Source of the DNA: Escherichia coli
Lineage (GTDB): Bacteria; Pseudomonadota; Gammaproteobacteria; Enterobacterales; Enterobacteriaceae
Assembly (NCBI RefSeq): GCF_003991155.1
Contig: NZ_CP031293.1
Reading direction: 5' to 3' (one strand)
DNA: 64,000 nucleotides
Position numbers and translations under genes: made by a program. Below, one piece after another: positions 44,837 to 63,200 of the stretch; the first letter of the stretch is position 1, and every line of letters starts with the position of its first letter. The notes below the pieces were generated by a model that had not been told where the DNA came from, did no database searches, and saw nothing but the letters and a program-made list of their open reading frames with translations.

Positions 44837-45823
44837 ATGAACGCAATAATATCGCCCGATTATTACTATGTTCTTACCGTTGCTGGTCAGTCTAATGCCA
44901 TGGCGTATGGCGAAGGACTGCCATTACCGGACAGGGAAGATGCGCCTCATTCCAGAATTAAACAATTAGCGAGATTTGCGCATACGCATCCCGGAGGCCC
45001 GTCATGTCACTTTAACGACATTATTCCACTGACTCACTGCCCACACGATGTTCAGGATATGCAGGGTTATCACCATCCTCTGGCAACGAATCATCAAACA
45101 CAGTACGGCACCGTTGGCCAGGCACTGCATATAGCACGGAAATTACTGCCCTTCATTCCTGATAATGCAGGGATTCTCATCGTTCCGTGTTGCCGTGGCG
45201 GATCGGCTTTTACCGCAGGCAGCGAAGGGACATATTCAGAACGGCACGGAGCCAGCCATGATGCTTGTCGTTGGGGAACGGATACTCCGCTATACCAGGA
45301 TTTAGTCAGCAGAACGCGAGCCGCACTGGCAAAAAATCCGCAGAACAAATTCCTCGGCGTATGCTGGATGCAAGGCGAATTTGACTTAATGACCAGTGAC
45401 TACGCGTCACACCCTCAACACTTTAATCATATGGTTGAAGCCTTTCGTAGGGATCTAAAACAATACCATTCTCAGCTTAATAATATTACTGACGCACCGT
45501 GGTTTTGCGGCGATACCACCTGGTACTGGAAAGAAAAATTCCCTCATGCGTATGAAGCGATTTATGGCAATTATCAAAATAATGTTTTAGCCAATATTAT
45601 TTTCGTCGACTTCCAGCAACAAGGTGAAAGAGGACTGACGAACGCGCCTGATGAAGATCCGGACGATTTAAGCACGGGATATTACGGTTCAGCGTACCGG
45701 TCACCGGAGAACTGGACGACGGCACTGCGAAGCAGTCATTTCAGCGCGGCAGCCCGTCGGGGGATTATTTCTGACAGGTTTGTAGAAGCAATTTTGCGTT
45801 TGTCACATTTTCACAAAGAATAG
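44837..45823 (+). CDS. nanS: 9-O-acetyl-N-acetylneuraminate esterase (SGNH/DUF303)
   Basis: From ATG 44837 (MNAIISPDYYYVLTVAGQSNAMA...); ORF track begins at 44810. Confidence 0.8.
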   Translation: MNAIISPDYYYVLTVAGQSNAMAYGEGLPLPDREDAPHSRIKQLARFAHTHPGGPSCHFNDIIPLTHCPHDVQDMQGYHHPLATNHQTQYGTVGQALHIARKLLPFIPDNAGILIVPCCRGGSAFTAGSEGTYSERHGASHDACRWGTDTPLYQDLVSRTRAALAKNPQNKFLGVCWMQGEFDLMTSDYASHPQHFNHMVEAFRRDLKQYHSQLNNITDAPWFCGDTTWYWKEKFPHAYEAIYGNYQNNVLANIIFVDFQQQGERGLTNAPDEDPDDLSTGYYGSAYRSPENWTTALRSSHFSAAARRGIISDRFVEAILRLSHFHKE

Positions 45824-45872
45824 TACACGCTATTCCTTGTGCAATCAGGCCAACTCGCAATAAAGGCAGCAA

Positions 45873-46567
45873 CTATGCTTGAAGCCCCTTCCCCGCCGGA
45901 TAAATAATATCCTTACGGCAATTGGTAACCGTATAAAAGGCCTGATGTTTTGAACTGCCGTTGACGGAGATGAAGTAATCTGCTTTTTTGGCAGCATCCA
46001 ATAACGCATCAATGGCAACGCGATCATTGTTGAGCTCAATTCATAGCGCTGGATACAATTTCAATAAGGCGTCTTTACCACGTTGCGTGGCATTTTTGTA
46101 ATACTGTAAAACACCCGCTTTTTCCCGCGGAGATTCCGATACAACGGAGACGTTACGCTTGCTGGTATGGTTTCTGTCGGGAGGGTACTACCGATATCCT
46201 TACAAGCGTAGAGCTGTTCCATCATGCGTGCCAACAACAACATACGGATATCCAACCGTTCCCAGCGACGTAGGAACATCTCGCGAATGTTAATCCAGTA
46301 CTGTAGTCGGCGATCGCTATCACCAGATTCACAATCATAAAGAACCTCTGCAATATCAAGAGTATACTTGAGAATTTATGTCGATTCATTTTTCGTGCAC
46401 AACATTTCGATAGCTTCGAGGGCATCATGGTATTCTTTGTGACTGAAGGTCCATGAAAGTAACGTATCGAGAATAATCCCTGTAGTTGCCAAAATGAGTT
46501 GATCACTACACAATGATTTGTTTGTACAGAAGGAACGATTATTATATGTTCTTGTAGGGCAGAGCAC
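45873..46567 (-). pseudogene. Degraded gene remnant (internal stops and one frameshift), possibly yjhR-like
   Basis: Minus-strand translation runs ...SWTFSHKEYHDALEAIEMLCTKNEST-stop-ILKYTLDIAEVLYDCESGDSDRRLQYWINIREMFLRRWERLDIRMLLLARMMEQLYA... then shifts frame to ...YYKNATQRGKDALLKLYPAL-stop-IELNNDRVAIDALLDAAKKADYFISVNGSSKHQAFYTV...; four overlapping short ORFs in the track. Confidence 0.45.
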
Positions 46568-46684
46568 GTTGCTACCGTAACAGCGTTGAAGATAATTTGG
46601 CCGAGACTGTAGTGGCCCAGTTTAAAAGGTAGCAGAATTTTAAAAGTGTCAGGTGCATAGAATTAAAAAAATGGAACTATAAAA

Positions 46685-48418
46685 ATGGAAATCATATTAC
46701 CAAAAAACACCTTATATGACAGAGAGCAAAATGTCTTTTTTGAAAAGGTTACGGCCTTAATTGGCGAAAATGGTGCTGGTAAGTCCTCGATTTTACAATC
46801 CGTATTTATTAACTGTTTAACAAAAAAATATCTACCAGAAACAAAGGTTGTTTGTTTTTCTTCTGGACAAAATGAGAAATACTCAACGTACTTCTCTGAT
46901 TATCTTTCTCATGAAAGGCAAGCAAATAGAGGTCTTAACTTAGATTGTTGTTATTACGATAAATCATGGTCAAAGTTACTAATATTCATATCCACAATTT
47001 GTAAATCAAATGGTCTTGTTAGAAATTTTTTATGTGAGAAAGGCTATATTGATGTATCAGATGATAAAAATGATGATATATCAAGCAAGCTTACATTGAC
47101 GGTCCGAGTAAATTCGGCTTACGTTAATCGAGTAAAAATGGCATTAGCACAAGAAGAACAAGGTATTGAAAATACTTTAAGGTATTCAGCTTATCATAGG
47201 ACTTTAGAAAGTTTCATTAATAATATTGTTAATGCTGATTATGATTTCGAGTCTCCACTTGAAGCTCAAGAGATCTTGCTAACTCATTCAAATTTTTTCA
47301 ATCCATCATTTGAGGAAGCAGAAGATTCCTTTTTTGATCCTATCATAACATTTTTCACTCAAGCAGCAGATAATGATTACTTTATAATAAAACCATCATT
47401 ACAGCTAGAGTTTAAAAATAATATCGAACTGAATGATATTAGTGATGGGGAATATCAAGTACTCTTTTTATACTCTCTGCTTGATATTTTTGATAGTCCT
47501 AATACTTTATTCTTATTAGATGAGATAGATTCCCATTTACATTACAAGAATATTGAGCTCTTATGGCATCGACTACATAGTATTAATGGTTATGCGATAA
47601 CAACCACCCATCTATTAGACTCAATTACAGCTACTGATAATGATTTTAAAAACTTAAAGATTGTTGATAAAGGAAAAATAAAAGAAGATGATAAAATAAA
47701 AACTATAATAGAACGTTTATCTGTCTTGACAAGAATATCAGACGTACAGTTCGAAGTGTGTCGTAAACTAGAAAACATAGTATTGATGGATGATTATAAT
47801 GATTGGACTATTTTTTATGCCTTAGCAAAGAAAAAAGGACTTGATGTATCAAAGTTAGATGGCCTCCATGCAATAAAACAGTCCTCTGGTTACGATAATT
47901 TAAATCAAGAGTTCGCAAAACCAAAAATAGAGTGGATTAATTCGCTTTTAAATGTAAATACTGATAAAAAAGTCAAAAGAATATTCATGATCTGCGACAA
48001 AGATGAGGCTCCAATTACCTATCAGAAAGATGGAGTTCAAGTCAATGGAAGTGAATATTCAAAACATATAGCGAAGTTAGAAAATAAAAACAAAAATAAA
48101 ATATATCTCCTTGCATGGAAAAGAAGAGAAATAAAAAACTACTTACTATCTTATACGGCATTGTCCCATCATGGATTTATCGAGCAAATAAACAATGGAG
48201 ATCTGCCAGCTAACAGTTATTTAAAAGAAAACGATCCTGGAGATAATTCAGCAATTAGCCGGCTTAACGTAAAACATTGCATCACAAAAATAATTGATTC
48301 TGATGGTATAGGATTAGATATATCAAAACTTTACTCATATATAGAACTTATACCACCTGCTGAGATCAGTGAAGATATAGTGAACATGTACAATTTTTTG
48401 GTGGAGAAATTAAAATGA
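46685..48418 (+). CDS. OLD/PARIS-like ABC-type ATPase (AAA_15/21-like) with C-terminal Toprim-like (RloB/DUF4435-like) domain
   Basis: 577 aa; Walker A LIGENGAGKSSIL, Walker B/D-loop LFLLDEIDSHLH, C-terminal DxD-type motif IFMICDKDE; very AT-rich coding sequence; stop overlaps the next gene's start (ATGA). Confidence 0.6.
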   Translation: MEIILPKNTLYDREQNVFFEKVTALIGENGAGKSSILQSVFINCLTKKYLPETKVVCFSSGQNEKYSTYFSDYLSHERQANRGLNLDCCYYDKSWSKLLIFISTICKSNGLVRNFLCEKGYIDVSDDKNDDISSKLTLTVRVNSAYVNRVKMALAQEEQGIENTLRYSAYHRTLESFINNIVNADYDFESPLEAQEILLTHSNFFNPSFEEAEDSFFDPIITFFTQAADNDYFIIKPSLQLEFKNNIELNDISDGEYQVLFLYSLLDIFDSPNTLFLLDEIDSHLHYKNIELLWHRLHSINGYAITTTHLLDSITATDNDFKNLKIVDKGKIKEDDKIKTIIERLSVLTRISDVQFEVCRKLENIVLMDDYNDWTIFYALAKKKGLDVSKLDGLHAIKQSSGYDNLNQEFAKPKIEWINSLLNVNTDKKVKRIFMICDKDEAPITYQKDGVQVNGSEYSKHIAKLENKNKNKIYLLAWKRREIKNYLLSYTALSHHGFIEQINNGDLPANSYLKENDPGDNSAISRLNVKHCITKIIDSDGIGLDISKLYSYIELIPPAEISEDIVNMYNFLVEKLK

Positions 48419-50322
48419 ACACCTCTTTATTTGAAGATCTACTTACACTAATCAAGAAAAAGAGTTCGATAAGGAATACAGAACAAGCAGTAGAGTTAAT
48501 TTCATTATTTATTTTTTTACATTATATAAAATTATATCTTTATGAAAATGATAAAAGATTTTCAGATATAAAAAACATATCAAGCAACAACATTAATGAA
48601 ATTAAATATTATTATCAGCAACTATATGAAAGTTTTATTTTCTCGATAGATATAAAAAATATAAACCACGACATGCTTGAAAAGCTCAGGAGTAAGATAG
48701 GTTTTTTAATTAATAACATCAATGACCATGAAATAATTAAATATATAGATTATTCTATTTCGCAGATACATTCACTTACAGAATTCTATCAATATGCAAA
48801 TTCTTATCAATCTTTAATTCTTAGGATGGTTAATGAATCGGGTCGTTCAGGTGAATATGTTACTCCATCTGCTTTAGTTCAGCTCATGGTTGAAATGTTA
48901 TCACCTACAGATGGCACATCAATCTACGACCCCGCATGTGGAACTGGGGGTTTATTAATAGAGTCAGCACGATATATTAAAGGCAACAGTTTAAACAAAA
49001 ACTTAAATTTAAATTATTCCCTTATTGGTAATGACACATCATCATTTGCCTGTCTAATCTCAATTGTTAACCTTTTAATCAATAAAGAATTTAATTTTGA
49101 AATAATACTAAAAGATAGCTTAGATATAAATTATAAGAATACAAAATATGACTTTATTTTAACTAACCCACCATTTGGGAAAAAGAGCGGTTGGGATAAT
49201 ATTCATATTGACACACATTATAAAGGACCTAATCTAGACTATTACTTCCTGGAGCATGTTATTGACTCTCTCGCTGTTAATGGCAAAGCAGCCATAATAT
49301 TACCAGAGCGTTTTTTATATGATGTGAGTAAAGAGTGCATCACTCTTAAAGATAAGATCTTCCAAAATTATAATTTAGATTGTATTTTATCTATACCGTC
49401 AGGTGCATTGCTTCCTTACACTGCAGTAAAATTATGTATTCTTTTTATAAGTAATCCTGGCCCAACAGATAGAATATTTTTCTACAATTTAAATAATGGT
49501 GAAAAATACTCACGTACAAATATTATAAAATTCGATGATTTTATAGATTTTTTAGAGTCAGCAAAAAATAGAACAATAACTGAACACTCCTGGATTATCA
49601 ATATTAGTGATACACCTTCATCTTATAACTTACTCTTAAAAGATAAAGAGCGAAACTCATATGAGTTTCTTAGTGATTCTATAGTTAACATTGAACAGAC
49701 AATACGTAATAATGAATTATTACTAACAGAGTTGTCTTTATTAAGAGAAAAAATAGCAATCTTAGAGTCAACAATAAAAAATCATTCGCATGAATATGAA
49801 TTTGAGAGACTTAAAGTTGGAAATATTGCAATAGTAAAATCCGGAAATTTATTACAAAAAAACAGGCTGTTACCCACTGGACCAATTCCTGTATACGGTG
49901 GAAATGGAGTTATTGGATATAACAATGAGGCAATGGTAAATGGTGAAAATATTATTATTGGTAAGGTCGGAGCTCTTTGCGGAAACGTTCGGTATGTTCA
50001 AGGTGATATTTGGGTGACAAATAACTCATTAATTATTAAGAATTATTTACCAAATAAAGTTTTAACACCCTACCTTGCAAAGTTATTATCTACTTTAAAC
50101 TTAAGAAAGCTCGCCGTTGGTACCGCTCAACAATATTTAACCACAACACAAATAAAAAATGTAGAAATTAGCATTCCACCTTTAACGACCCAGCATAAAT
50201 TAAATATGTGGCTTGATGAGTTAGATAATACCCTTGAACAATATAATAAGCTCATTGAAAAAATAATGAATGATAAGCGAGAACTTAAAGAGAATTTGTA
50301 TAAAGGTCTTTTAATAGAATAG
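48415..50322 (+). CDS. HsdM-like N6-adenine DNA methyltransferase fused to one HsdS-type target-recognition domain (M-S fusion)
   Basis: 635 aa; motif X EYVTP, motif I DPACGTGG, motif IV TNPPFG; C-terminal ~180 aa resemble a single TRD plus HsdS conserved helix (KVGNIAIVKSGN ... VTNNSLIIKN ... TTQHKLNMWLDELD); AT-rich; translationally coupled to the upstream gene. Confidence 0.7.
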   Translation: MNTSLFEDLLTLIKKKSSIRNTEQAVELISLFIFLHYIKLYLYENDKRFSDIKNISSNNINEIKYYYQQLYESFIFSIDIKNINHDMLEKLRSKIGFLINNINDHEIIKYIDYSISQIHSLTEFYQYANSYQSLILRMVNESGRSGEYVTPSALVQLMVEMLSPTDGTSIYDPACGTGGLLIESARYIKGNSLNKNLNLNYSLIGNDTSSFACLISIVNLLINKEFNFEIILKDSLDINYKNTKYDFILTNPPFGKKSGWDNIHIDTHYKGPNLDYYFLEHVIDSLAVNGKAAIILPERFLYDVSKECITLKDKIFQNYNLDCILSIPSGALLPYTAVKLCILFISNPGPTDRIFFYNLNNGEKYSRTNIIKFDDFIDFLESAKNRTITEHSWIINISDTPSSYNLLLKDKERNSYEFLSDSIVNIEQTIRNNELLLTELSLLREKIAILESTIKNHSHEYEFERLKVGNIAIVKSGNLLQKNRLLPTGPIPVYGGNGVIGYNNEAMVNGENIIIGKVGALCGNVRYVQGDIWVTNNSLIIKNYLPNKVLTPYLAKLLSTLNLRKLAVGTAQQYLTTTQIKNVEISIPPLTTQHKLNMWLDELDNTLEQYNKLIEKIMNDKRELKENLYKGLLIE

Positions 50323-50402: not shown

Positions 50403-53400
50403 TTAATAATGCTCCTCAATATACCCATACGCCTTCTGGAACAACTCTTTATCTTTCCCTAGTCCAAACTGGGCCAAGGTCAGTAAAAGCGCCTTTTGGA
50501 TTTCGCGCGGGCCACTGTTGGAATTTTGCCAGCCATCAAAGCGGGTAGCTTTCACAATTTTATCAATTTGCTCTACAACATCACCGATTAACTTAGGGGT
50601 AGTTTCCGGACGTGTTTCGAGGAAAAGCTTAGTCAACGCCTGTTTATTATCAGCTTCAGTTACTGGGCGCTCGCCCGTTTCGCGCTCGGCTTGAACGGTA
50701 TCTTTCGCTGCATCCAACAGGCCTTTCAACCAGTCAATGGCCTTGATAACACCAGCTTCATAGTCCTGACGCAGTTTTTCAAGGCGCTCGCCCAATGCCA
50801 CAAATTTAGGATCATGACTGCCGCGCAAACGTCCCATAAGATCAATCTCCAGGCGTTTGGCACGTTGTTCCTGCTCTTTAGCGGTCAGGGTAAAAATAGC
50901 GTGCTCGTCCATAACCAACTCGTCAATATCATCGCGAATACGATTGATATCAGTATGCTCATGGATCATCTTGATTGTTTCGGGGCCAAGGGCAGCCCAA
51001 ACAAGCGCACCTGTCTGCCCTACCGGACGCACCGATTCATAAATTTGCGCCAGCCATTTATAGTCCTGACGATAAGAGGTCAAAAAAGGATCTGGGTTGA
51101 TAGCTGACCATAACTTGGATAACACACCAAAGCTGGCAGCGAATTCATCGCGTTTCTCGTTGGTCGGCAGGCATTCCTGCGCGGCCATAATACCTTCAAA
51201 ACCAGCTATGGACCGATCCACACCAGGGAAGAAGGACAAACATTTATTCAGTTGTAACGGCAATAGCTCTTTAAATGCCTCAATTCCCTCTACAACTCCT
51301 TCAATTTCTTCAGGGTTATAGGCCAGAGCGGTACGCAGATTTTCGAAAACGCCGAGGTAGTCGATAATTAATCCCATGTCCTTGCGTACAGTATCGGTTT
51401 CGTACAACCGGTTGGTTCGGCACATGGCCTGAAGAAGAGTATGATCGCGTAGAGGCTTATCGAGGTACATGCAGTAGCAAATCGGGGCATCAAAACCCGT
51501 AAGCAGCTTGGCGGTTACGATAATAAGCTGTAATGGATGTTCAGGATCTTTAAAGCATTCAATCAGATCCTTTTGCACCTGTTCTTCGGCATCAATGTGC
51601 TGCCAGCGTTCAAAATCGACTTGTTTGACTGGCAGCTCCAACTCATCATGCCATTTAAGCCAATCCTTGTTGAGCTTGTCTTTTTTGCCACCCTCTTCAA
51701 CTTTAACCGGAGCCTGGTCAACGTTCATAACCACTTCAACCGCATCAAAACCAAGCTTTTCACCGAGCAAATAATACATCTGCACACAGGCTTCGCGATC
51801 GTATACCACAACCATGCCTTTCATCTTTTTCGGCATAACATGGTTGGTAAAATGCTCAGCAATATCATTACTCACCGCAGCCATACGCCTAGGGGATTTC
51901 AGCATGATTGCCAGCTTGCCTGCACGCCTGGACAATGCTGCTTTTTCTTCTTCATCCAGGTTGTTTTCGGTAGCCAGTTGCTCGAACTCTTCATTGATGG
52001 CATCACGATCCACTCGGAGTTCAGCCAGCCGAGGTTCGAACTTCACCGGGTTAGTTGCGCCATCCCGGATCGACTGCTTATAGCTATAGCGGCTCATATA
52101 GCGACCTGGATCTTCTTCGGCACCGAACAATTTGAACGTATTACGATCAATGCCAGAAATCGGAGTACCAGTCAGGCCATAGAAGTGGGCATTGGGCAAC
52201 GCCCAGCGCATTTTCTCGCCTAATCCCCCTTCCTGTGTACGGTGAGCTTCGTCAACCAACACAATGATATTGTCCCGGTTGTTCAGGCCATTAGGGTTGC
52301 TATCGTCAATTTCGATATCTTTAAATTTAAAGATGGTGGTGATTAAAATGCCACGGCTGTCTTGTTCTATGTATTCACCCAACTTTTTGCAGCTTTGCAC
52401 TTTAATCAGATTCTTAACGTCGGCTCCGCCAAAGGTCTCGTTAATTTGGCTGTCCAGATCTCGCCGGTCCACAACGATAAGTACCGTCGGGTTTTTTAAC
52501 GCATTATCGGCACGTAGCATTTTGGCGGCGTAAAGCATCAACAAGGATTTACCCGATCCCTGGAAATGCCAAATAAGACCTTTTTTTGGATAGCCTCTGC
52601 GAACACGCTCAACAATTTGTTTTGCAGCTTCAAATTGCGGATAACGCGGCAGGATTTTAACGCGTTTAGGTGGAGTATTTTTGCCCGTTTTGACGGTTGA
52701 AAATAATGCAAAAGATTCAAGTAACTGCAATAAGGTTTGTGGATTTAACAAACTCTCACAGCTGTTGAGTACCGATGCTAATCCCGGCAGAATTTCATCA
52801 CGAAGCTCAGTATTATGCCAGGGCCCCCAGTCTTTAACTCTGGCATTAATGGCACCATAGGCAAAGGTTTTTCCTTCGCTGGCAAAGCACAGCAAGTTAG
52901 GTACAAAGAAAGATTCAACATTTTTCCAGTAGTACTTTTTGCCACCCATGAAATCGGCAGCACCGTCTTGCCAGGTCACGCTGGGGCGTGTTGCGGTTTT
53001 AACTTCGCCCACTACTAGCGGTATGCCGTTCACATAAAGAACAATATCAAAATAGACTTCAGTGGCCGCGATATAGCGAACCTGCTGCGCCACCACAAAG
53101 TGGTTGTTCTCTATATTGTCAAAATCAATCAGATTGATGGTGATATGGTCGCCATTCTTACCAAAAGGCAAGGTTTTGTCGGCCATCAACCATTCCTGGA
53201 AGTTTTCATTGGCCTTTACCAAGCCGGTATGGCGGGCTTCTAAAACCACTCCTCGCAGTTTGTAAATGACCTCATCGGCATAGTCAGGCTGTCTGCCGAT
53301 ATCAGGGTTTAACGAACAAAGCGCGTCTTTTAGCCACTCATCAACGAAGATATCCTGCGCTTGTTTAGGCAGGTTTTCACCGTGGCAGTAAGTCCACTTG

Positions 53401-53465
53401 ACTCCGCTTAAACCTTTTAAACGGTCGATAATTCCATTTTCTGTGACGGTTTGTTCGTTAAACAA
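50403..53465 (-). CDS. hsdR: Type I restriction enzyme R subunit
   Basis: 1020 aa; SF2 helicase motifs (GSGKSLLMLYAA Walker A, VLVDEAHRTQ DEAH box); last gene of a tightly packed four-gene operon. Confidence 0.9.
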   Translation of the reverse strand: MFNEQTVTENGIIDRLKGLSGVKWTYCHGENLPKQAQDIFVDEWLKDALCSLNPDIGRQPDYADEVIYKLRGVVLEARHTGLVKANENFQEWLMADKTLPFGKNGDHITINLIDFDNIENNHFVVAQQVRYIAATEVYFDIVLYVNGIPLVVGEVKTATRPSVTWQDGAADFMGGKKYYWKNVESFFVPNLLCFASEGKTFAYGAINARVKDWGPWHNTELRDEILPGLASVLNSCESLLNPQTLLQLLESFALFSTVKTGKNTPPKRVKILPRYPQFEAAKQIVERVRRGYPKKGLIWHFQGSGKSLLMLYAAKMLRADNALKNPTVLIVVDRRDLDSQINETFGGADVKNLIKVQSCKKLGEYIEQDSRGILITTIFKFKDIEIDDSNPNGLNNRDNIIVLVDEAHRTQEGGLGEKMRWALPNAHFYGLTGTPISGIDRNTFKLFGAEEDPGRYMSRYSYKQSIRDGATNPVKFEPRLAELRVDRDAINEEFEQLATENNLDEEEKAALSRRAGKLAIMLKSPRRMAAVSNDIAEHFTNHVMPKKMKGMVVVYDREACVQMYYLLGEKLGFDAVEVVMNVDQAPVKVEEGGKKDKLNKDWLKWHDELELPVKQVDFERWQHIDAEEQVQKDLIECFKDPEHPLQLIIVTAKLLTGFDAPICYCMYLDKPLRDHTLLQAMCRTNRLYETDTVRKDMGLIIDYLGVFENLRTALAYNPEEIEGVVEGIEAFKELLPLQLNKCLSFFPGVDRSIAGFEGIMAAQECLPTNEKRDEFAASFGVLSKLWSAINPDPFLTSYRQDYKWLAQIYESVRPVGQTGALVWAALGPETIKMIHEHTDINRIRDDIDELVMDEHAIFTLTAKEQEQRAKRLEIDLMGRLRGSHDPKFVALGERLEKLRQDYEAGVIKAIDWLKGLLDAAKDTVQAERETGERPVTEADNKQALTKLFLETRPETTPKLIGDVVEQIDKIVKATRFDGWQNSNSGPREIQKALLLTLAQFGLGKDKELFQKAYGYIEEHY

Positions 53466-53466
53466 T

Positions 53467-54633
53467 TTATTGTCCCCTCAGAAGAATATTCAAATAACTG
53501 GACTTGAGTTTACGAATTTTTTGAAGCCTTGATTTAGCTTCTCTATAACTGTTTTCGGCTAAATGTAATATATCCTTATATTTCCCAAGCTCTCTTGATG
53601 GTGGTATAACCATCTTCTGAGAATGTACATCGGCATCATTAACAGCCGGGAAACTTGTACCAACTGCCAAATTGGTTAATGAATAAGTGAATTGCTTCGA
53701 CAAAGTGAAATAATAAATAAAATCGGACAAATCATTTTTTGCCCTTAGAACAGTAAAACCTGTTGATGCTATTGAATCATTCAATATTTCAGACACATAA
53801 AACGTAGCTCTATGATTGGGTCTAACAGTGCTAACAACAATATCTTTTTCCTTAAGAATACGCCGAGCTCGGCTGGGGGCTTCAGCGAAATGGTATTCTT
53901 TAGGAGTATCGACAAAACCAGGAAAAGTCACTGAAGATATATCTATATACCTAATCAGCTTATTTTTATTGGCATCATTACTTAACAAGTCAAAATTAAT
54001 ATTTGATACATCCTTCAATCTAACTTTGTTATATCCAAATGGCAGTTTTTCTTTTCGATCAAATGTAGTCAACCGATCAATTAATCTTTGAAATAAATTT
54101 AATGCAGACCTTTCAGTCTCATTTGCACAATGTAATACTTGTTCGATTTTTTTTAAAGAATTTAAAAAATCAACTTGCAGATCCATTTCAGGAATAATAA
54201 ATTCCTGCTGACTTAAAACTTTCCATTTTATCGTTGGAGACAATGACCCCTCCGAAATTGCTACTGCACGATTCATGAAAGTATCAGACTGCATAATAAA
54301 GGGTAAAAACTCAGGTATTACAGTATTTGAATTTGCCTCCAGAACCATGGCATGAGCCGAACAGATACAATCCCAATCTGCTACCGCGACTTTACGTTGA
54401 TAAGCACGACGCTTACCAAAAATAATCTGGCCTTTTTTCACTAAAAGCTTCTGCCCTTCAACGTCACTGGGTGTACCATGACGTTTGATTTTCAGGCTGT
54501 CAGGGTCTAAATGCTCCAAACCGACATAAATTTCAAGGTCTGTCTCGCTCGGTTCCACTCGTTTAGAGATATGTTTAGCGATATCGCCAAACTTCACCAT
54601 TTGCCAGCCTTCAGGTAATTGCTGTTCTGTCAT
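53467..54633 (-). CDS. hsdS: Type I R-M specificity subunit (two TRDs)
   Basis: 388 aa with two TRD-like halves separated by a conserved central region; AT-rich; abuts hsdM2 and hsdR. Confidence 0.85.
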   Translation of the reverse strand: MTEQQLPEGWQMVKFGDIAKHISKRVEPSETDLEIYVGLEHLDPDSLKIKRHGTPSDVEGQKLLVKKGQIIFGKRRAYQRKVAVADWDCICSAHAMVLEANSNTVIPEFLPFIMQSDTFMNRAVAISEGSLSPTIKWKVLSQQEFIIPEMDLQVDFLNSLKKIEQVLHCANETERSALNLFQRLIDRLTTFDRKEKLPFGYNKVRLKDVSNINFDLLSNDANKNKLIRYIDISSVTFPGFVDTPKEYHFAEAPSRARRILKEKDIVVSTVRPNHRATFYVSEILNDSIASTGFTVLRAKNDLSDFIYYFTLSKQFTYSLTNLAVGTSFPAVNDADVHSQKMVIPPSRELGKYKDILHLAENSYREAKSRLQKIRKLKSSYLNILLRGQ

Positions 54634-56133
54634 TTACTGCTCCACCTTGCTTTCAACGTTATATCCAAGCTCTGCAAGGCTCTGGAATAATTTATTAGTT
54701 TGCTTTTTCAACTGAGTACGGCTTACTTTCCACGCTTCAATCGCATGTTCAATATTATGTACTTCAGCGTTGTTTTGTGCTTGCACATACAGTGGAATTG
54801 AAAGGTTATAAAGGTTTTCTTTAATAGCTTCAATATTCACTAAAGAGGTTATATCGTTTTTTTTCTCCGGATTAAAATAAGCCTCGCATAATACCTCCAA
54901 ATCCTCATCGGATAAGCGACTATGAGCGCGTTCACGGGTAACATGCTCAACCCCGTTGATAAATAACACTTTATTTTTGCGTTCGGCAGGTTTATTGCAA
55001 TTAAGCACCACCACACAAGATTCCATCGGCGAGTTATAAAACAGATTTGGTCCCAAACCAATCACCGCTTCAATAATGTCCGATTCAATCACCTGTTTAC
55101 GAATGGCCTGCTCAGAATCACGGAACAGCACACCGTGTGGCCAGAGCATAGCAGCACGACCGGTATCGGGTTTTAAACTTTTAATTATATGGGTATAAAA
55201 AGCATAATCAGCGCAGCCCTGCGGTGGGACACCATAAAGATTTCGACCATACGGATCAGCAGCAAACTTGTCACGATTCCATTTTTTAATGGAGTACGGT
55301 GGGTTGGCAAAAATCACATCAAACTGCTTGAGCCGATCGTTTTCAATAAACTTTGGCTCAGCCAAAGTATCACCACGCAGCACATCAAACTCTTCAATAT
55401 CGTGCAGGAACATATTCATACGGGCGATTGCGGATGTCAGCAGGTTCACTTCCTGACCATAAAGGTGCACAGAGCGCCACTCTTCCCCTCTAGCACGCAG
55501 ATCCATCACTGCATTTAGCAACATCCCACCTGTGCCACACGTTGGATCATAGGCGGTTTCACCCGGTTTTAAGCCCATAATGCGCGTCATTAAATGCACG
55601 ACTGTTCGGTTGGTGTAGAACTCTGCTGCCGTATGACCGGAATCATCAGCGAACTTTTTAATCAGGTATTCGTAGGCCTCACCAAGATCATCCTGAGCGA
55701 CAGATTTAATGCCTAGCGGAATTTGACTGAAATGTTCAATCAGATCAGCCAGCAGATGATCGGGCAGGCGCTCTTTATTGGTCCACTGCGCATCACCGAA
55801 GACGCCATGTAAACGCGGATTATTGGCTTCAATTAGTCGAAGCGCATTCTGGATCGCTTCACCAATGTTTTTACTGGTATTGCGTACCTTTTCCCAACTG
55901 GCTTCAGAGGGAATGTTGAAACGGTGAAACATCGGCATGGCGGCATATTCAGCATCACCTTCATGGAGTTCCAGCGCTTCGTTATATTCTTCCAGATAGA
56001 CATCTGACAGGCGTTTGTAAAACAGCAACGGGAAGATATACTGCTTGTAGTCTGATGCGTCAATTTGGCCACGAAGAAATTCGGCGGCTCCCCAGAGCAG
56101 CTCTTCCAGCTTTTTATTACTCATAGTACTCAT
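54634..56133 (-). CDS. hsdM: Type I R-M methyltransferase subunit, paralogue 2 (motif X variant FYTNR)
   Basis: 499 aa; HsdM_N (DASDYKQYIFPLLFYKRLSDVY), DPTCGTGG, ANPPYS; start overlaps the stop of the upstream hsdM paralogue (ATGA). Confidence 0.85.
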   Translation of the reverse strand: MSTMSNKKLEELLWGAAEFLRGQIDASDYKQYIFPLLFYKRLSDVYLEEYNEALELHEGDAEYAAMPMFHRFNIPSEASWEKVRNTSKNIGEAIQNALRLIEANNPRLHGVFGDAQWTNKERLPDHLLADLIEHFSQIPLGIKSVAQDDLGEAYEYLIKKFADDSGHTAAEFYTNRTVVHLMTRIMGLKPGETAYDPTCGTGGMLLNAVMDLRARGEEWRSVHLYGQEVNLLTSAIARMNMFLHDIEEFDVLRGDTLAEPKFIENDRLKQFDVIFANPPYSIKKWNRDKFAADPYGRNLYGVPPQGCADYAFYTHIIKSLKPDTGRAAMLWPHGVLFRDSEQAIRKQVIESDIIEAVIGLGPNLFYNSPMESCVVVLNCNKPAERKNKVLFINGVEHVTRERAHSRLSDEDLEVLCEAYFNPEKKNDITSLVNIEAIKENLYNLSIPLYVQAQNNAEVHNIEHAIEAWKVSRTQLKKQTNKLFQSLAELGYNVESKVEQ

Positions 56134-57629
56134 ACCTCGAAACCTTCTTTGATAAGCAGGGCCTCCAGCTCCTCTTCTGCTTTTTCCAGCTCAGCCAGCT
56201 TCCGTTGAAAATCTTTGAGCGCCTCTTCCACAGTGATGGTTTCTTCTTCGAGTGGCTTTTGCACATAACGAGCAATATTTAGATTGAAGTCATTTTCTTC
56301 AATCTCCTTCAGAGAAACCCAGCGTGCAACGCCTTCGATTTCTTTTGCATCTGGCCCTTGTTGCGCCTGGTCATGATAGATTTGGTATATTTCATCGGCC
56401 TGCTTGTTGGACAGCGTATTCTGCGCACGTCCCTTGGTATAGATTTCTTCAGCATTGATGATCAATACATGATCTTTATGCGCGGCCGGACGTGATTTAC
56501 GCAGCACCAAAATACACGCAGGAATCCCAGTCCCATAGAACAGGTTGGAAGCAACACCAATAATCGCCACAATGCGATTCTCTTGCAGTAATTTGGTTCG
56601 AATTGCCCCCTCTGCGCCGCCACGAAACAGCACACCATGAGGTAATACGACTGCCATACGTCCATTGTCGTTAAGTGAAGCAAACATATGCTGCACCCAG
56701 GCAAAATCACCATTTGTTTTAGGCGCCAGGCCATATTGCTTACGGCCATAGGGATCGTTCGACCACAGATCGTATCCCCATTCTTTTAAGCTAAATGGTG
56801 GGTTGGCAACAACGCAGTCAAAGGTTTCTAAACGATCGCTTTTTAAAAATTTAGGTTCGCGTAAAGTATCCCCTCGGACAATATCGAAATCTTCCTGTCC
56901 ATGCAGGAACAGATTCATACGCGCAATAGCTTCCGTCGTTAAGTTCTTTTCCTGACCCTTGATTTTTAGTAAACGCGGATCACCACCATTTTCTTTTACA
57001 TGGTGGATGGTCTCAAGCAGCATACCACCGGTACCACAGGCGGGATCGTAGACACTCTCACCGGCTTTTGGATCAAGAATGTTAACCATCAAACGAACGA
57101 TAGTTCGTGGGGTATAGAACTCACCGGCTTTCTTATTGGCTTTGTCTGCAAAGCGTTTGATCAGATACTCGTATGCGCGCCCCATATCATCGTCACGGAC
57201 ACTAGAAACGCCAAGGTTCACCTTATTGAAGTGATTGAGTAACGTAGCCAGTAACTCATCAGAAAGGCGTTCTTTATTGGTCCAGCTGGCATCGCCAAAA
57301 ATGCCATGCAGTTTAGGGTTTGCCAGTTCTATACCACGGAAGGACTCTTTTAAAGCCTGACCGATGTCCTTGGTCTCAGCGAAAACATCGCGCCAGTGGC
57401 AATTTTCAGGTATCTGAATACGGTGAAACATCTTGCCCTTGGCAAGCTCTGCATCCCCAATGCTCTCCATCGCATCGGCAAATTCTTCGTCATACACGTC
57501 ACAAATGCGCTTGAAGAACAGGATGGGGAAAATGTACGTTTTGTAATCTGACGCATCAATGGGCCCTGTAATAATATGGGCTGCATGCCATAGATGGGCC
57601 TCGAGATCTTTTAGGTTAATCAGTGTCAT
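56130..57629 (-). CDS. hsdM: Type I R-M methyltransferase subunit, paralogue 1
   Basis: 499 aa from ATG 57629 (MTLINLKDLEAHLW...); DASDYKTYIFPILFFKRICDVY, GEFYTPR, DPACGTGG, ANPPFS; ORF track extends to 57731. Confidence 0.85.
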   Translation of the reverse strand: MTLINLKDLEAHLWHAAHIITGPIDASDYKTYIFPILFFKRICDVYDEEFADAMESIGDAELAKGKMFHRIQIPENCHWRDVFAETKDIGQALKESFRGIELANPKLHGIFGDASWTNKERLSDELLATLLNHFNKVNLGVSSVRDDDMGRAYEYLIKRFADKANKKAGEFYTPRTIVRLMVNILDPKAGESVYDPACGTGGMLLETIHHVKENGGDPRLLKIKGQEKNLTTEAIARMNLFLHGQEDFDIVRGDTLREPKFLKSDRLETFDCVVANPPFSLKEWGYDLWSNDPYGRKQYGLAPKTNGDFAWVQHMFASLNDNGRMAVVLPHGVLFRGGAEGAIRTKLLQENRIVAIIGVASNLFYGTGIPACILVLRKSRPAAHKDHVLIINAEEIYTKGRAQNTLSNKQADEIYQIYHDQAQQGPDAKEIEGVARWVSLKEIEENDFNLNIARYVQKPLEEETITVEEALKDFQRKLAELEKAEEELEALLIKEGFEV

Positions 57630-57872
57630 TGTTGTCTCTTTTCGATCCTGCAGTGCTTGAACTCTCAGCAACTCATGGATTTCACAGTAAAAAAGCAAGT
57701 AAAGCGATTCCACAACCACCTGAGCGTTCAATATGTATGACGCCTTTACCCAAGTTGCTTAAATCAAGGAAATTGCCAGAGATAATACTCTGGCATCAGA
57801 ATGATACCAAGTTGAAGGGCTGATTTCCGCATCAATACCTTGTGGTAATAGGGGATTACTCTTTTACCCTTA

Positions 57873-58910
57873 TTGGCGCAAAATGGCGGCATTTCCTCAT
57901 TTCTCCATCGGAGCATCTTACGCGCTATAACCACTCTCGTTTTTTCCTATTCCCATGCAGATGAAGCACTACGCAATGAACTTGAGAAGCATCTCTCCCC
58001 GCTGAAGCGAACCGGGAAGATCACAACATGGCACGATCGCCGCATCGTTCCTGGTCAGGAGTTCGAACGTCAGATCGACCACTATTTTTCGCAAGCAGAT
58101 ATCATCCTGATCCTGATCAGCAGTGACTTTATTGCTTCTGATTACTGCTATCAGGTAGAGATGAAAAACGCACTGGAACGGCATAACCGGGGCGAGGCAG
58201 TGGTCATTCCGGTAATTTTAAGAGACTGTGCATGGCATCAGTTAGAATTCGGCAGCATTATGGCGGCGACTATCGACGGTAAACCCATCACTAAGTTTGC
58301 CACCCACGATGAAGGCTACGTTCAGGTCGTCGAGGCTGTCTCGCGTGCCATTGCCCGGATGGAAGCCAAAAAACCACAGCAAACCATACATATCCCTTCA
58401 CCGGCTCCGGCGAATCCGATCTTTCAGGGAGTAGATTCCGTTTTTACACCGCGTTCAAGCAACCTTACTCTACCCAAGAAATTTACCGATCTGGATAAAG
58501 ATCGTGCCAGACGTGAGGGCTTTGAATATGTTGCCCGCTATTTTGAAAATTCGTTAGATGAACTCAAAAAGCGCCACCCCGGATTAGATATCGATTTTAA
58601 TCGGCTTGATACAGATTCATTCACCTGTGCCGTGTATATCAATGGCAGTAAGGTCGGCCAATGTGGCATCTGGCGAGGCAATCAACATCATGGAATGGGA
58701 GATATCTGTTATAGCCAGGATAATGTTGTTCGAAACAGTATTAACGAAACTCTAAGCCTTGCTGATAACGGCCAGACTCTTGGTTTTCGTGCTCTGATGG
58801 GAGGCTTCAGTCGAGGAACTTCACGAGACGAACTATTGACCAATGAAGGTATGTCGGAACATCTCTGGGAAATGTTCTTCGGGCTAATCAAGCAAAGAAT
58901 GTCCCGATAA
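57873..58910 (+). CDS. TIR-domain protein with uncharacterised C-terminal domain
   Basis: 345 aa; N-terminal ~150 aa show bacterial TIR pattern (VFSYSHADEALRNELEKHL ... ADIILILISSDFIASDYCYQVEMKNALERH); remaining ~190 aa not recognised. Confidence 0.65.
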   Translation: MAQNGGISSFLHRSILRAITTLVFSYSHADEALRNELEKHLSPLKRTGKITTWHDRRIVPGQEFERQIDHYFSQADIILILISSDFIASDYCYQVEMKNALERHNRGEAVVIPVILRDCAWHQLEFGSIMAATIDGKPITKFATHDEGYVQVVEAVSRAIARMEAKKPQQTIHIPSPAPANPIFQGVDSVFTPRSSNLTLPKKFTDLDKDRARREGFEYVARYFENSLDELKKRHPGLDIDFNRLDTDSFTCAVYINGSKVGQCGIWRGNQHHGMGDICYSQDNVVRNSINETLSLADNGQTLGFRALMGGFSRGTSRDELLTNEGMSEHLWEMFFGLIKQRMSR

Positions 58911-59094: not shown

Positions 59095-60150
59095 TCATGC
59101 TGGCAAATACGTTTTCTTAAGCGGCACCAATAGCTTAGTCTCTATATCCACTTGCTCATAGTTTTCAACTAACGCGCGTACCAAATCATCCAGCGTCCAT
59201 AGCGTCAACGGGATTGTAGAACGATCGGCCTCATAACGCGCATCCTTGCTGAATCCGCCGGTACTGACATACAGCCCGCGATCGTCTTTATGGCGGCCAC
59301 CGATAAAGCTACGGATTTGCTGGCTGCTCATCTGTTCCCGCCGGTGCTTCACCTCAACAATAATGCGCGGATTTTCAAACCCAAATCCGTCAGGCGAAGC
59401 AATGATGTCTTTCCCACGGTCAGCACCCGCAGGCGATACCTGAGTTTTATATCCCATGCTGCGTAACACGCCAGCGACCAGATTCTGCATCTCATCCCAG
59501 TCGAGACGGTTGATACGATCCTTGATGCCTTCAAAAGCGATCATTTCCATGTCGCGCAGAGGATTAGAAACGACCTCATCCTCTTCACCTGAAACAGGTA
59601 CTTCCGGCACGATATCTGAGACAGGCTTATTGCCCTGCACTAATTCATTCACAGCAAAATCAGGCACCTGAAAAACTGTCAGCGTTGAACCAAGGGTGTT
59701 TCTAGTTGCATCACTCAGACTATCGCGCTTAATCTCTTCCGCATTCCACTTCACTTTACGGGCGATGCCCATGCCATCTTCAAGCCACTCGGCATGAAAC
59801 TCAAAATCTGACGCTATTTTCCCTATTAAATAGGTCCGATTAGAAGGTGAATAAGTGATAGCCCAGTCGCCTTTCTGCATTTCATTCACAAAGCGCCAGA
59901 CCTGAGAAGCTCCAGAACGAACTGTGCCTGGCTTAGTCTGTGGCTCAAGCTCCTGATACCGGGTAAACAACTGCTCTCTTGAGCATCCAGGTTTCACATA
60001 GGGAGCGAGCTGCGACCAACCAATTGCAACAACCTGTTTGTCTCTGAAGTCGTCGTACAATTTTCCGCCATCACCGCGGATCATCCACATCTTAGTCGCC
60101 ACAATAATTCCTTCTGAAAATACTTCATCGTTATACCGGGACGTGATCAT
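59095..60150 (-). CDS. Putative modification-dependent restriction endonuclease: PUA/EVE-like N-terminal domain fused to Mrr-type catalytic domain
   Basis: C-terminus has the Mrr core (GADRGKDIIAS ... IIVEVKHRRE ... YVSTGGFS); N-terminus has EVE-like pattern (VWRFVNEMQKGDWAITYS ... YLIGKIA); ATG 60150 has SD AAGGTGG (ORF track starts at 60183). Confidence 0.6.
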   Translation of the reverse strand: MITSRYNDEVFSEGIIVATKMWMIRGDGGKLYDDFRDKQVVAIGWSQLAPYVKPGCSREQLFTRYQELEPQTKPGTVRSGASQVWRFVNEMQKGDWAITYSPSNRTYLIGKIASDFEFHAEWLEDGMGIARKVKWNAEEIKRDSLSDATRNTLGSTLTVFQVPDFAVNELVQGNKPVSDIVPEVPVSGEEDEVVSNPLRDMEMIAFEGIKDRINRLDWDEMQNLVAGVLRSMGYKTQVSPAGADRGKDIIASPDGFGFENPRIIVEVKHRREQMSSQQIRSFIGGRHKDDRGLYVSTGGFSKDARYEADRSTIPLTLWTLDDLVRALVENYEQVDIETKLLVPLKKTYLPA

Positions 60151-60212
60151 TCCATTCAGCCACCTTATCCAGGGGAAAAACACCGATAAGATGGCTAATC
60201 AAAATGTCTGTT

Positions 60213-63200
60213 CTAAACCTGACGCCTATCAAGACTATTATAAATAGCCTCAATCTCACCTTTCAGGTTATCACCAGAGTAAACCATCGATGTATCGTAT
60301 CGTTCATATCGCGCTTCCCGTGTCGCACTAAACCAGTTGAACGATCCCACGCATAGCAAACCATCATCACCAATAACAATTTTGCTATGAACACGGTTTA
60401 CCAGCTTTGTAGCAATACCCAGCGCATTCAGTTTCTCCAGCGCCGCTTTAAGGTTCTGCTGCTTCTCTTTTCGCTTCTCAAAATCTTTATGTTCAGTGTT
60501 GTAGCTTCTGTCAGTGACTATCGTGACGTTAATACCACGTGAACACGCCGCAATCATGGAATCAAGAAAACCCGTTTGCTCCAGCTTTTGCCAGGTCAGC
60601 CATGGAGAAACTATCGTGATGTGTTTATCGGTATTTTCAAACGTCTGATTCAGGAAGTTATCATGCTGCTCCACACCATGAAGTGTGTAGATTTTGGTCT
60701 CGGAAGTTTTTAAATCCTTACGCTCTTTATAATCAAAAGAGAGCGCATTCTTCTCGAACTCAAAGAGATATTTTGCCAGCAATCCTCGCGGAGATGAGGG
60801 AGCCTGGATCTCAAACAGATCCATATCGCCGAAGACCAGGAAGCTATCCTTCGCACGGGAGACTGCAACATTCAGCATGCTGTTATCGCTATCAATAAAC
60901 CCGCCGTCTTCATGTTTTGAATAGACTGGCGAGAATATAACAATCGCTCTTTCCGCTCCCTGAAGAGAGTGCACGGTGCCCACTGTGAGCGACTTTTCAT
61001 TCGCGCCCGTACTGATACCTTGTTTACCCAGCGCCTGTTTTATAGTGGATACCTGCGCGCTAAAAGGCGTCACGATACCGACAACTTCATGAAGCGATTT
61101 GCCGTAATGCGCTTCAATATTTTGCTGGTTCTCTGCCAACCAGGCCGCTATCGTTTCAGCCTCAAGCAAATTATATCTACTTCCACTACTTGCCTGCTCT
61201 CCTTTACCATCAATATGGAGATAACCCATTGCGGGCATTAAATTGCTCTCTTCACGCCCTCTTTTAGGCAACAACTTACCGTGATAGCAGAGCGTATTAC
61301 AGTATCCAATAATATTATCGAAGCACCGGCGGTGTTCATATAGGTACATACCACGAGCCAGTTCGGGATCATATTGATAGCGCGAAGCAAACTGCGCTAT
61401 TTTCATAACGCTGCCAGATGCGGCACTTTTACCAAGGTCTGCGATTGCCGTATATTTCTCGGTAATCTCTTCTTGCGTACTGCCAGACAGAATTTTTTCC
61501 GCCAGCATGTTACCGACATCAATCGCGGGAGCAATACTCCATATTGGCGGGATCTGCTCCGTATCGCCAATCACTAATGCCTTCTTAGCTAATGCAAACG
61601 AGGCAGCAGCCACTTCAGGAAGCACCTGCCCGGCTTCATCGACAATGAGTAAATCGGCAAAATCATACAAATAACTTTTCTCGAATTTACGTTGTCCTTT
61701 GTGCTCACTTATCTGCATATTGCCGGGCAGCATATAGCATGTCATCACCACACATGGAGTGAGTTTCATTCGACGTTGCCAACGGGCGGTTACCCCTTTA
61801 GCGCCTTGTTTCTTCTTCTCTTCCTGCAGATCATCAATTCTGGCCATATCCATCAGCCAACGACCTTCCCAGTAGTGAGTCGTCAGTAAAAATGCAGGGA
61901 AGCGAATCTGCGTATCAGCCAGTTCATCGGCCTGTGAGAAGCTCAGTTCCTCGTCGCCCTCATACCCTAAATCAAATGCCAGCCTCTGCCACTCCTGAAC
62001 CGCCTGCTGTTCTTTAAGAACGATTTCATGGGCGGAGTCAATCTGCTGCCGGTATGTTGTTTGCTCGCGCTCAGCGGAATTGAGCAGCCCATCAATATTA
62101 CGTTCGATAGTTTCAGGATCAGACCACTGATTTCCTGCAATCAGCGCGCCTAATTTATCTTCGAGAAACAGCTGTATTTGGTACTGTCGCTTATTGCGAA
62201 CCGCCGGGAGCCAGGAAAATAATGAATAGATCAGTGATTCACCGGCGCGATATTTTTTCCATTCCGTTTTAGCACTCTTCAGTAGAGTGACTTTTTGTTC
62301 TTGTCCGGAAAGTAATTTATTTAAATTATCGAGATATTGCTCAATATCATTAGCAATAAGCTCACGCGCAGCCCGAATCTGGCTTAACATTTGCCATGTT
62401 GCGTTCAGTCTTATCAGTTGCTCGGATTTTGCTGCCAACTGACCATGCAGGAGTTCAATGATCTTTTCAGGGGATGAACACTCTTTTTCAGGAAAGGCTG
62501 CCTTAGCCTTCTCCAGATAAAACAGCAGTGCATCCTCTACATACTCTTTTGACTCAACCTGGGTGAAGAAATCTTCAGTTTGATATTTTTTGGCTGCCTC
62601 AGCTTTACGAGTGCTTGAGGGAAAATAAGCGCCGAAGCTTTTCAGCTCTGGCAACCATCGTCCGGCCATCGCACCTGAACCTTGCGAAAAGTCTTTCCCG
62701 AATGCCTCAATAATGTTCGTTACAGCCTGGTTATTCGTTGAAGTCGCGATAATAACCGGAGGCTCAGATTTTTCGAGAGCTGCTCTGGCCCACTGCGTGG
62801 CGATGATAGAAAGCACCAGCGTGGTTTTTCCGGTTCCCGGAGGTCCATTAACAGCAAGGATATCGCCATGTCTTGCATCCAGAAAATGGCTTAAGGCATC
62901 GCGCTGAGCCTTTGCCAGCGGAAACTTATCTCCGGAGTGTCCAAGCCTGTCGCTGAATTTTGCTCCTGGGGCCAGCAAAGACTCTGCAGCATGAACCTCT
63001 CGCGAGGCGAAGCGATTGAAGAGCGGCACATCCTTCTTGCAAACAAGCAGGTGATCATAAAGAGAAAGGATATGGAAACTGGCACCGCCAGATTGCGCCG
63101 TTTTAACAATATAACCGTGCTCAGCGAGTACATATTGCTCAGGATTTTTAATCCAGTCGCCGGCAACATTCTTCAGCAGCCTCTCTGAATCATCCAGATA

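Follow-up and report, generated by a model that had tools for sequence, protein, structure and literature searches.

ATP-binding cassette (ABC) ATPase-Toprim proteins (Old, Gabija and PARIS) and guardians of restriction-modification (R-M) systems (PrrC) are known, and much about how such effectors connect to the system that they guard is open. A locus of the Escherichia coli chromosome (assembly GCF_003991155.1, contig NZ_CP031293.1) raises this question in a compact form. In the 64,000-nucleotide stretch that we analysed (hereafter the window), two genes at positions 46685-50322, numbered on the whole stretch, encode an ABC ATPase joined to a Toprim-like domain (open reading frame 1, ORF1) and an HsdM-type methyltransferase core fused to a single HsdS-type target-recognition domain (TRD; ORF2). 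What does an OLD-like effector do beside a type I methyltransferase? A first prediction, made from the DNA letters alone, saw in the two genes a candidate R-M-like system in which ORF1 could replace HsdR. The genes do form a conserved unit, which we tentatively read as a guardian of restriction, and the evidence argues against the proposed substitution for HsdR.

ORF1 and ORF2 are one operon-like unit kept across genera. The ATGA overlap that had suggested a single operon is present (table 1), and the unit recurs elsewhere. The 3.6-kb segment of the pair was found in 102 of 5426 complete E. coli genomes (~2%), at 95-100% identity; all 102 matches span both genes and all are chromosomal. Overlapping or adjoining homologues, whose co-occurrence had been proposed as a check, were present in six further contexts, which makes seven, window included, in which an ORF1-family gene lies directly 5' of an M-S1/2 fusion gene. 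These come from Acinetobacter (L006/7; fusion 36% identical to ORF2, 23-nt gap), Snodgrassella (L016/17; 46%, 11-nt overlap), a metagenome contig (L018/19; 32%, 8-nt overlap), Vibrio vulnificus (L024/25; 31%, 8-nt overlap), Psychrobacter (L026/27; 32%, 8-nt overlap) and Aliarcobacter butzleri (L029/30; 29-nt overlap between ATPase and fusion). The ATPases of the V. vulnificus, Psychrobacter and Aliarcobacter pairs are 42-43% identical to ORF1. By matching both homologue lists, we inferred 12 further ATPase/fusion pairs, Salmonella, Raoultella, Pectobacterium, Cellvibrio, Pseudoalteromonas and Vibrio included, and over 17 pairs the identities of ATPase and fusion to the window copies are closely correlated (Spearman 0.96). 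The start-stop overlap is kept from 100% down to ~31% fusion identity, in Gammaproteobacteria, Betaproteobacteria and Campylobacterota, and no ORF1-family gene without a methyltransferase(-like) neighbour was seen in the 14 distinct contexts examined. A lack of linkage in other genomes, which would have counted against the original prediction, is clearly contradicted by these data. For linkage, the analysis covered 12 look-ups of exact proteins, two plasmid records and the collection of E. coli genomes, rather than a systematic census.

Table 1. Positions of the gene pair, its domains and the defence genes that follow it in the window
Feature	Positions	Strand	Remarks
ORF1	46685..48418	+	577 amino acids, ATG start; RefSeq WP_061092743.1, 'AAA family ATPase'
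ORF1 ABC ATPase head, residues 1-350	46685..47734	+	Walker A, signature-like and Walker B motifs
ORF1 Toprim-like domain, residues 352-577	47738..48415	+	Predicted structure and conserved motifs
ATGA, ORF1 stop / ORF2 start overlap	48415..48418	+	Sequence
ORF2	48415..50322	+	635 amino acids, ATG start; RefSeq WP_061092744.1, 'N-6 DNA methylase'
ORF2 gamma-class N6-adenine methyltransferase core, residues 126-400	48790..49614	+	Motif I DPACGTGG and motif IV NPPF intact
ORF2 single TRD (461-590) and C-terminal conserved-region helix (591-635)	49795..50319	+	Pfam Methylase_S
Type I R-M operon: two hsdM paralogs, hsdS, hsdR (1020 amino acids)	50403..57731	-	Context rather than a demonstrated part of the system
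ThsB-like TIR protein	57873-58910		PADLOC ThsB1 2e-153; no ThsA seen beside it
PDC-S02 candidate restriction-like protein	59095-60183		
Mokosh type II MkoC	60213-63728		

Two of these contexts show irregularities of their own. In one Psychrobacter genome (L026 6191-8001), the ATPase is called at 438 amino acids and a gap of ~490 nt separates it from the fusion gene; this may be a decaying copy, and a related contig (L027) holds a full 605-amino-acid ATPase gene. In A. butzleri (L029 1417-5126), a second ABC ATPase gene (884 amino acids, AAA_15/21) and a gene of 352 amino acids lie between hsdR and the pair, so that two ATPase modules are stacked behind one type I hsdR.

The motifs quoted for ORF1 in the original prediction (GENGAGKSS, LLDEIDSHLH and ICDKDE) are all found in its translation. 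The head carries Walker A at G27-S35, a signature-like S253-D-G-E-Y-Q258, Walker B at D279-E280 and H309, with a variable insert at ~106-235. Pfam recognizes AAA_21/SMC_N alone (residues 13-301), PADLOC matches (AriA, mad3, PtuA, AbiLi and GajA) are weak and partial, and no NCBIfam model came near its cut-off. For residues 350-577, we found no family match in Pfam (ORF1 and 33 homologues), PDB sequences, NCBIfam or PADLOC, and a PHROGs search gave nothing specific for this domain. Conserved motifs are nonetheless present in it: [D/E]369-x3-D373-W374, D438-x-D440, R481-E482...Y486 and K530, the first two spaced as in Toprim motifs. Across 57 aligned sequences, the ABC part keeps K33, S253-D254-x-E256, D279-E280 and H309 without exception, as the C-terminal part does D373-W374, D438-x-D440, Y486 and K530; either D or E occurs at position 369, and most sequences have E482.

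The AlphaFold2 model of ORF1 has a predicted local distance difference test score of 91, and its best Foldseek matches over the whole protein are GajA, the Thermus scotoductus OLD protein (TsOLD) and the retron Eco8 OLD nuclease. Taken alone, the C-terminal domain matches PH0156 (score 8.1 over 162 residues), Retron Ec67/Eco2 (7.9, 153), AriB (7.3, 161), the Class 2 OLD C-terminal region (7.0, 150), TsOLD (5.6, 130), GajA (5.5, 140) and the DnaG core (5.2, 100); Piwi MID domains reach similar scores, over only ~105-112 residues. It is because of this predicted structure and the conserved motifs that we assign the domain to Toprim, as sequence families alone give no assignment. ORF1 is thereby modelled as an OLD/PARIS-type protein, ABC ATPase plus Toprim, as had been proposed; the parallel drawn at the same time with RloA/RloB finds no RloB match in Pfam, and judged by its sequence ORF1 falls into a separate, unnamed family. 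This family comprises 136 clusters (50% identity) at E<1e-10 among 1.84 billion representatives, and the full length is kept in ~85 such clusters at E<1e-30, with members in Enterobacteriaceae, Vibrio, Aeromonas, Acinetobacter, Pseudomonas and others. As to a phage origin, no phage match to the family was found, and its plasmid matches are only four, all of the form embedded in type IB operons described below. Six members (P0137, P0140, P0145, P0154, P0160 and P0165) are longer, at 730-747 amino acids, owing to an extra N-terminal segment of ~160 residues; one gene of this long form (L013 7001-9226) lies inside a type IB operon, beside a GmrSD_N protein.

ORF2 was expected to be an HsdM core with one TRD and neither nuclease nor helicase, and Pfam agrees, with N6_Mtase at residues 131-399, Methylase_S at 462-617 and no nuclease or helicase domain. 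EYVTP, DPACGTGG and NPPF are all found in the translation, a helical linker (residues 401-460) precedes the TRD, and PADLOC returns MTase_I (5e-63) and Specificity_I (9e-28). Chain A of PDB entry 7EEW, which also holds T7 Ocr, matches residues 8-614 (E 8.6e-85), and the fusion of the V. vulnificus pair is 97% identical to it. 7EEW is an HsdM-S1/2 fusion of V. vulnificus YJ016 (Seo et al. 2022, as cited in PMC12429846); according to the citing paper, two M1S1/2 chains make an (M1S1/2)2 dimer that recapitulates an M2S1 methyltransferase, and the fusion is reported within a type I operon. The architecture of ORF2 is thus already known, since 7EEW is the same M1S1/2 'minimal methyltransferase', and we annotate ORF2, on its domain matches, as an HsdM-type core plus half an HsdS. 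The HsdMs of type IB operons match its core better (E 1e-41 to 1e-50) than do the two neighbouring HsdMs of the window (1e-18 and 1e-29).

Such type IB operons also harbour relatives of ORF1. Proteins 27-55% identical to it are encoded within complete hsdR-hsdM-hsdS operons (L002-5, L008-10, L012-15 and L020-23), usually in the order hsdR-ATPase-hsdM-hsdS, in Pseudomonas aeruginosa, an E. coli Tn7-like element, two metagenome contigs and Shewanella and Vibrio plasmids; in two cases with more distant relatives, the gene order differs. The HsdR of these operons carries EcoEI_R_C and is annotated as of the EcoAI/FtnUII family. Compared between hosts, HsdR and HsdM are 84-97% identical and HsdS, as expected, 28-53%. 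The embedded ATPase behaves like the latter: it is 43% identical between two operons (L008 8001-9797 and L014 8001-9851) whose R and M are 95% identical, and its divergence runs along the whole protein with a peak in the ATPase insert. The embedded gene has been replaced as an allele, like hsdS, and its diversification is as would be expected for an arms-race sensor. The slot after hsdS in the same operons is itself variable. In P. aeruginosa (L002 12599-14551) and E. coli (L008 12524-14542), it holds a protein of 650-672 amino acids with no Pfam or PADLOC match; elsewhere it holds SIR2 and a DUF87/HerA-like ATPase (L012), SIR2 (L014) or nothing (L015).

The fusions fall into clades that differ at the catalytic motif. 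In the clade of the window, NPPF is always kept and motif I is strictly kept, whereas in the sister clade of 7EEW motif IV reads GVPF, GIPF, AIPF, ASPF and the like in ~98 of the 100 sequences in which it could be located. The Asp/Asn of (D/N)PP(Y/F) is generally needed for amino-methyltransferase catalysis, and the sister clade is probably inactive because this catalytic Asn has been lost. It nevertheless retains both the TRD and the overlapping ORF1-family ATPase-Toprim gene. A methyltransferase that probably cannot methylate could not protect the host genome, and the persistence of the pairing without the catalytic Asn therefore suggests that methylation is not the conserved role of the partner.

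We tentatively favour, short of calling it probable, the view that the two genes make up an anti-phage module acting as a 'restriction guardian', similar to PrrC and PARIS. Several lines of evidence point to a guardian: ORF1 joins an ABC ATPase to a Toprim-like domain with conserved acidic and lysine residues; ORF1-family genes adjoin a methyltransferase(-like) gene in every context examined; both genes are present in all 102 matching E. coli genomes, and ATPase and fusion co-diverge; the sister clade has kept the pairing after losing its Asn, and its representative 7EEW was crystallised with Ocr; the ATPase of type IB operons diversifies in the manner of a sensor; PrrC, PARIS, Gabija and HEC-04 provide precedents. 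In such a module, an ORF2 dimer, (M1S1/2)2, would act as a type I-style core that binds DNA and DNA-mimic anti-restriction proteins in one cleft, and in the clade of the window it probably still methylates one fixed symmetric site. ORF1, a putative OLD/PARIS-like ATPase-Toprim nuclease made together with ORF2, would probably be bound to it and held inactive. A phage factor, for which an Ocr/ArdA-type mimic or a Stp-like inhibitor are candidates, would perturb the methyltransferase platform or the ATPase sensor and so switch on the Toprim nuclease. The activated ORF1 might then cut tRNA (as PARIS, P2 Old and PrrC do) or DNA (as Gabija does), and infection would be aborted. A more specific version, which we regard as somewhat unlikely, makes the fusion a dedicated sensor or bait, whose cleft would trap DNA-mimic anti-restriction proteins or read a fixed DNA feature and license the ORF1-type partner to kill the cell; the sister clade would have given up catalysis, and the E. 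coli clade would still methylate. If this version were true, the pairs would be an unrecognised, widespread class of anti-anti-restriction systems built of R-M parts, and the solved structure 7EEW would have to be reinterpreted.

Several points weigh against a guardian. The strict conservation of NPPF and motif I in the clade of the window is also what a self-methylating R-M-like system predicts. Ocr binds type I methyltransferases generally, so that its presence in 7EEW shows no sensing role. The co-divergence of ATPase and fusion could be simple co-inheritance of neighbours, the probable inactivity of the sister clade is deduced from general knowledge of motif IV, and the physical association, trigger, substrate and defence phenotype of the pair are all matters that we infer from the analysis.

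The R-M-like system of the original prediction, in which ORF2 methylates and gives specificity and ORF1 cleaves unmethylated foreign DNA in place of HsdR, appears unlikely to us. It accounts for two translationally coupled, always paired genes with no HsdR in their operon, OLD-family proteins and GajA can cut DNA, and strictly kept NPPF and DPACGTGG fit an essential self-methylation; because of this last conservation the proposal keeps some weight. However, relatives of ORF1 are encoded in operons with a complete HsdR of their own, and a partner with a probably dead methyltransferase, as in the sister clade, would be unworkable for R-M. The TRD also argues against a diversifying R-M specificity. 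No other region of the fusion is as well conserved (TRD 40-62% identity, vs 34-54% in the catalytic core and 13-34% at the N-terminus), and column conservation computed with the V. vulnificus clade included follows the same order (TRD 0.58, core 0.55, N-terminus 0.40). We saw no sign of TRD shuffling in the fusion family in the cross-genus comparison, in contrast with the hypervariable HsdS of the related type IB operons.

Alternatively, the two genes may merely be neighbours, ORF1 being a self-sufficient abortive-infection protein of the OLD/HEC-04 kind and ORF2 an orphan or auxiliary methyltransferase, which seems to us decidedly unlikely. Single-protein ATPase-Toprim defences do exist (P2 Old and HEC-04), unrelated defence genes are often embedded in R-M loci, for which selfish linkage has been proposed, and the ATPase of type IB operons is exchanged separately from R and M. 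Independent genes would nevertheless hardly preserve a start-stop overlap down to ~31% fusion identity across three bacterial groups, nor would an ORF1-family gene be accompanied by a methyltransferase(-like) gene in all 14 contexts, and if the partner had no role it would be hard to see why the sister clade has kept it in a probably inactive form.

The surroundings of the pair bear on a last possibility. By RefSeq annotation, the pair lies 3' of fimB/fimE and nanC-nanM-nanS and adjoins nanS. It is as AT-rich as had been noted, with a GC content of 0.28-0.32 vs 0.44-0.48 in both flanks. The fall in GC begins at ~46.5 kb, between nanS and ORF1 (window 45823-46685), and this gap is probably the left edge of an acquired island; it contains a minus-strand ORF of 94 amino acids (46222-46506) with no NCBIfam match. 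The absence of obvious Shine-Dalgarno sequences holds for ORF1, whose site is weak, but not for ORF2, which has GGAG 8 nt 5' of its ATG, inside ORF1. Scans with consensus promoter and terminator models gave no signal over shuffled expectation, and no plus-strand terminator was found between the two genes. On the other side, a type I operon does adjoin the pair, across an 80-bp gap to hsdR; the description of it as classical and back-to-back with the pair needs correcting, for it is convergent (tail-to-tail) and is not classical because it has two HsdM paralogs. These tandem HsdMs (499 and 533 amino acids, both near the TIGR00497 cut-off) precede hsdS and hsdR (window 53467-57731, minus strand), an arrangement that resembles the non-canonical M1M2S type I systems reported to make both N6-methyladenine and N4-methylcytosine (PacII; PMC9613975). 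Since the type I operon, a ThsB-like TIR protein, PDC-S02 and MkoC all follow downstream (table 1), the pair is located in a defence island.

A full type I system stands beside the pair in five of the seven pair contexts (E. coli, Acinetobacter, Snodgrassella, V. vulnificus and Aliarcobacter), and the V. vulnificus pair lies directly 3' of an hsdR whose product is 86% identical to the HsdR of the window. It is very improbable, all the same, that ORF2 is an alternative core for the neighbouring HsdR, R2(M1S1/2)2, with ORF1 as an accessory factor, even with the V. vulnificus fusion described within a type I operon (PMC12429846): the Psychrobacter pair has no type I neighbour, E. coli PAR has the same two-HsdM four-gene operon at the leuX island and no pair, the adjacent HsdR is of the EcoEI_R_C family in Snodgrassella and of the HSDR_N/T1R_D3 family in Vibrio, Acinetobacter and E. 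coli, the operons of the window are convergent and not co-transcribed, and the ORF2 core is closer to type IB HsdMs than to those next door. This possibility and that of independent neighbours are both less consistent with the conserved overlap and contexts than a guardian is, and we treat the type I operon as context, not as a functional part of the pair.

In this family an OLD-like effector and a type I methyltransferase module form a compact pair that is obligate at the level of the genes; besides E. coli, it is found in Salmonella, Klebsiella, Vibrio, Acinetobacter, Pseudomonas, Aliarcobacter and others. Nature provides three arrangements of it: embedded in type IB operons, coupled to a fusion that looks active, or coupled to a fusion that is catalytically degenerate. 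Together with the Ocr co-crystal, these make it testable whether R-M methyltransferases serve as infection sensors. Because annotation gives its genes no more than the names 'AAA family ATPase' and 'N-6 DNA methylase', the pair is probably missed by defence-system finders.

How does the pair compare with systems already described? Both building blocks and the general guardian logic are known. For the pairing itself, which had already seemed to lack a name, we found neither name nor model in PADLOC v2, NCBIfam or the literature searched, which leaves several key papers uncovered; only the ORF2 architecture by itself had already been solved. The pair is not a classical type I R-M system, as there is no HsdR in its operon and the nearest hsdR belongs to a separate operon on the other strand. 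Several other candidates were set aside. Type IIG and type ISP are ruled out, since ORF2 has no fused nuclease or helicase. MADS does not fit (NCBIfam MADS2 at 59.5 bits against a cut-off of 720; a partial PADLOC mad3 match at 2e-13; two genes vs eight), nor does AbiL (AbiLi/AbiLii, equivalent to RloA/RloB), whose AbiLi matches are weak and partial (8.5e-10) and which finds no RloB Pfam match in the C-terminal domain. Gao_RL is listed as an SNF2-helicase system, and its identity with ORF1/ORF2 could not be established. The OLD/PA2735 genes of P. aeruginosa PAO1161 are unlinked and offer no parallel to the pair.

PARIS resembles ORF1 in combining an ABC ATPase with a Toprim-type effector (AriA with AriB, DUF4435/Toprim, sometimes merged as AriAB), and it is triggered by Ocr, a type I R-M inhibitor; Ocr is also a trigger of Gabija, another ABC ATPase/Toprim system. 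The best match to the ORF1 ATPase, although weak, is PADLOC AriA PDLC02980 (E 1.1e-14, residues 22-297), the matches to AriAB models are confined to residues 239-295 (E 1e-6), and neither DUF4435 (AriB) nor AriAB profiles in PADLOC or Pfam match the C-terminal domain. PARIS differs in having no type I methyltransferase(-like) partner gene, whereas ORF1 is a single chain always coupled to one, and it is found in P4 satellite hotspots rather than in R-M-type loci. Proteins of the OLD family (P2 Old, class 2 BpOLD, GajA and the retron Eco8 effector) are likewise single chains with an N-terminal ABC ATPase and a C-terminal Toprim. ORF1 has the ABC ATPase motifs and, in its predicted model, a Toprim fold with acidic residues, including equivalents of the metal-binding acidic residues and the conserved lysine of OLD, while the Toprim_OLD Pfam profile matches neither ORF1 nor any of 33 homologues. 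The partners of these proteins in Gabija and retrons (the UvrD/GajB helicase or the retron) are absent from the ORF1 locus, and partners such as those of ORF1, a methyltransferase-TRD fusion or a type IB operon, are not described for the OLD family in the sources read.

PrrC, which like RloC is an R-M-linked anticodon nuclease, resembles ORF1 as an ABC-type ATPase effector whose gene is in or attached to a type I R-M locus: it is embedded in EcoprrI (a type IC locus), released by Stp, and fires when restriction is inhibited. Relatives of ORF1 placed between hsdR and hsdM recall prrC inside ecoprrI. The effector of PrrC is an anticodon-nuclease domain while the C-terminal domain of ORF1 is Toprim-like, no PrrC or RloC model was among the PADLOC or NCBIfam matches to ORF1, and the form found in the window differs from PrrC loci in having a methyltransferase-like partner only, without HsdR. 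HEC-04 provides another precedent, as an ATPase-Toprim fusion embedded in a larger system, whose defence needs both Walker A and the Toprim metal site, within a broader pattern in which ABC ATPase genes commonly lie inside other defence systems and confer defence (Payne et al. 2024, preprint). It is found in Hma systems and, unlike ORF1, has no dedicated methyltransferase partner; HEC-04 models were not among the best 25 PADLOC matches to ORF1. The closest parallel to ORF2 is 7EEW, the V. vulnificus M1S1/2, which shares its near full-length architecture and its conserved TRD. The two differ in overall identity (~31% by BLASTP) and in motif IV, which is GVPF in 7EEW instead of NPPF, and the close homologues of 7EEW (97% identity) are, like ORF2, overlapped by an upstream ORF1-family ATPase gene.

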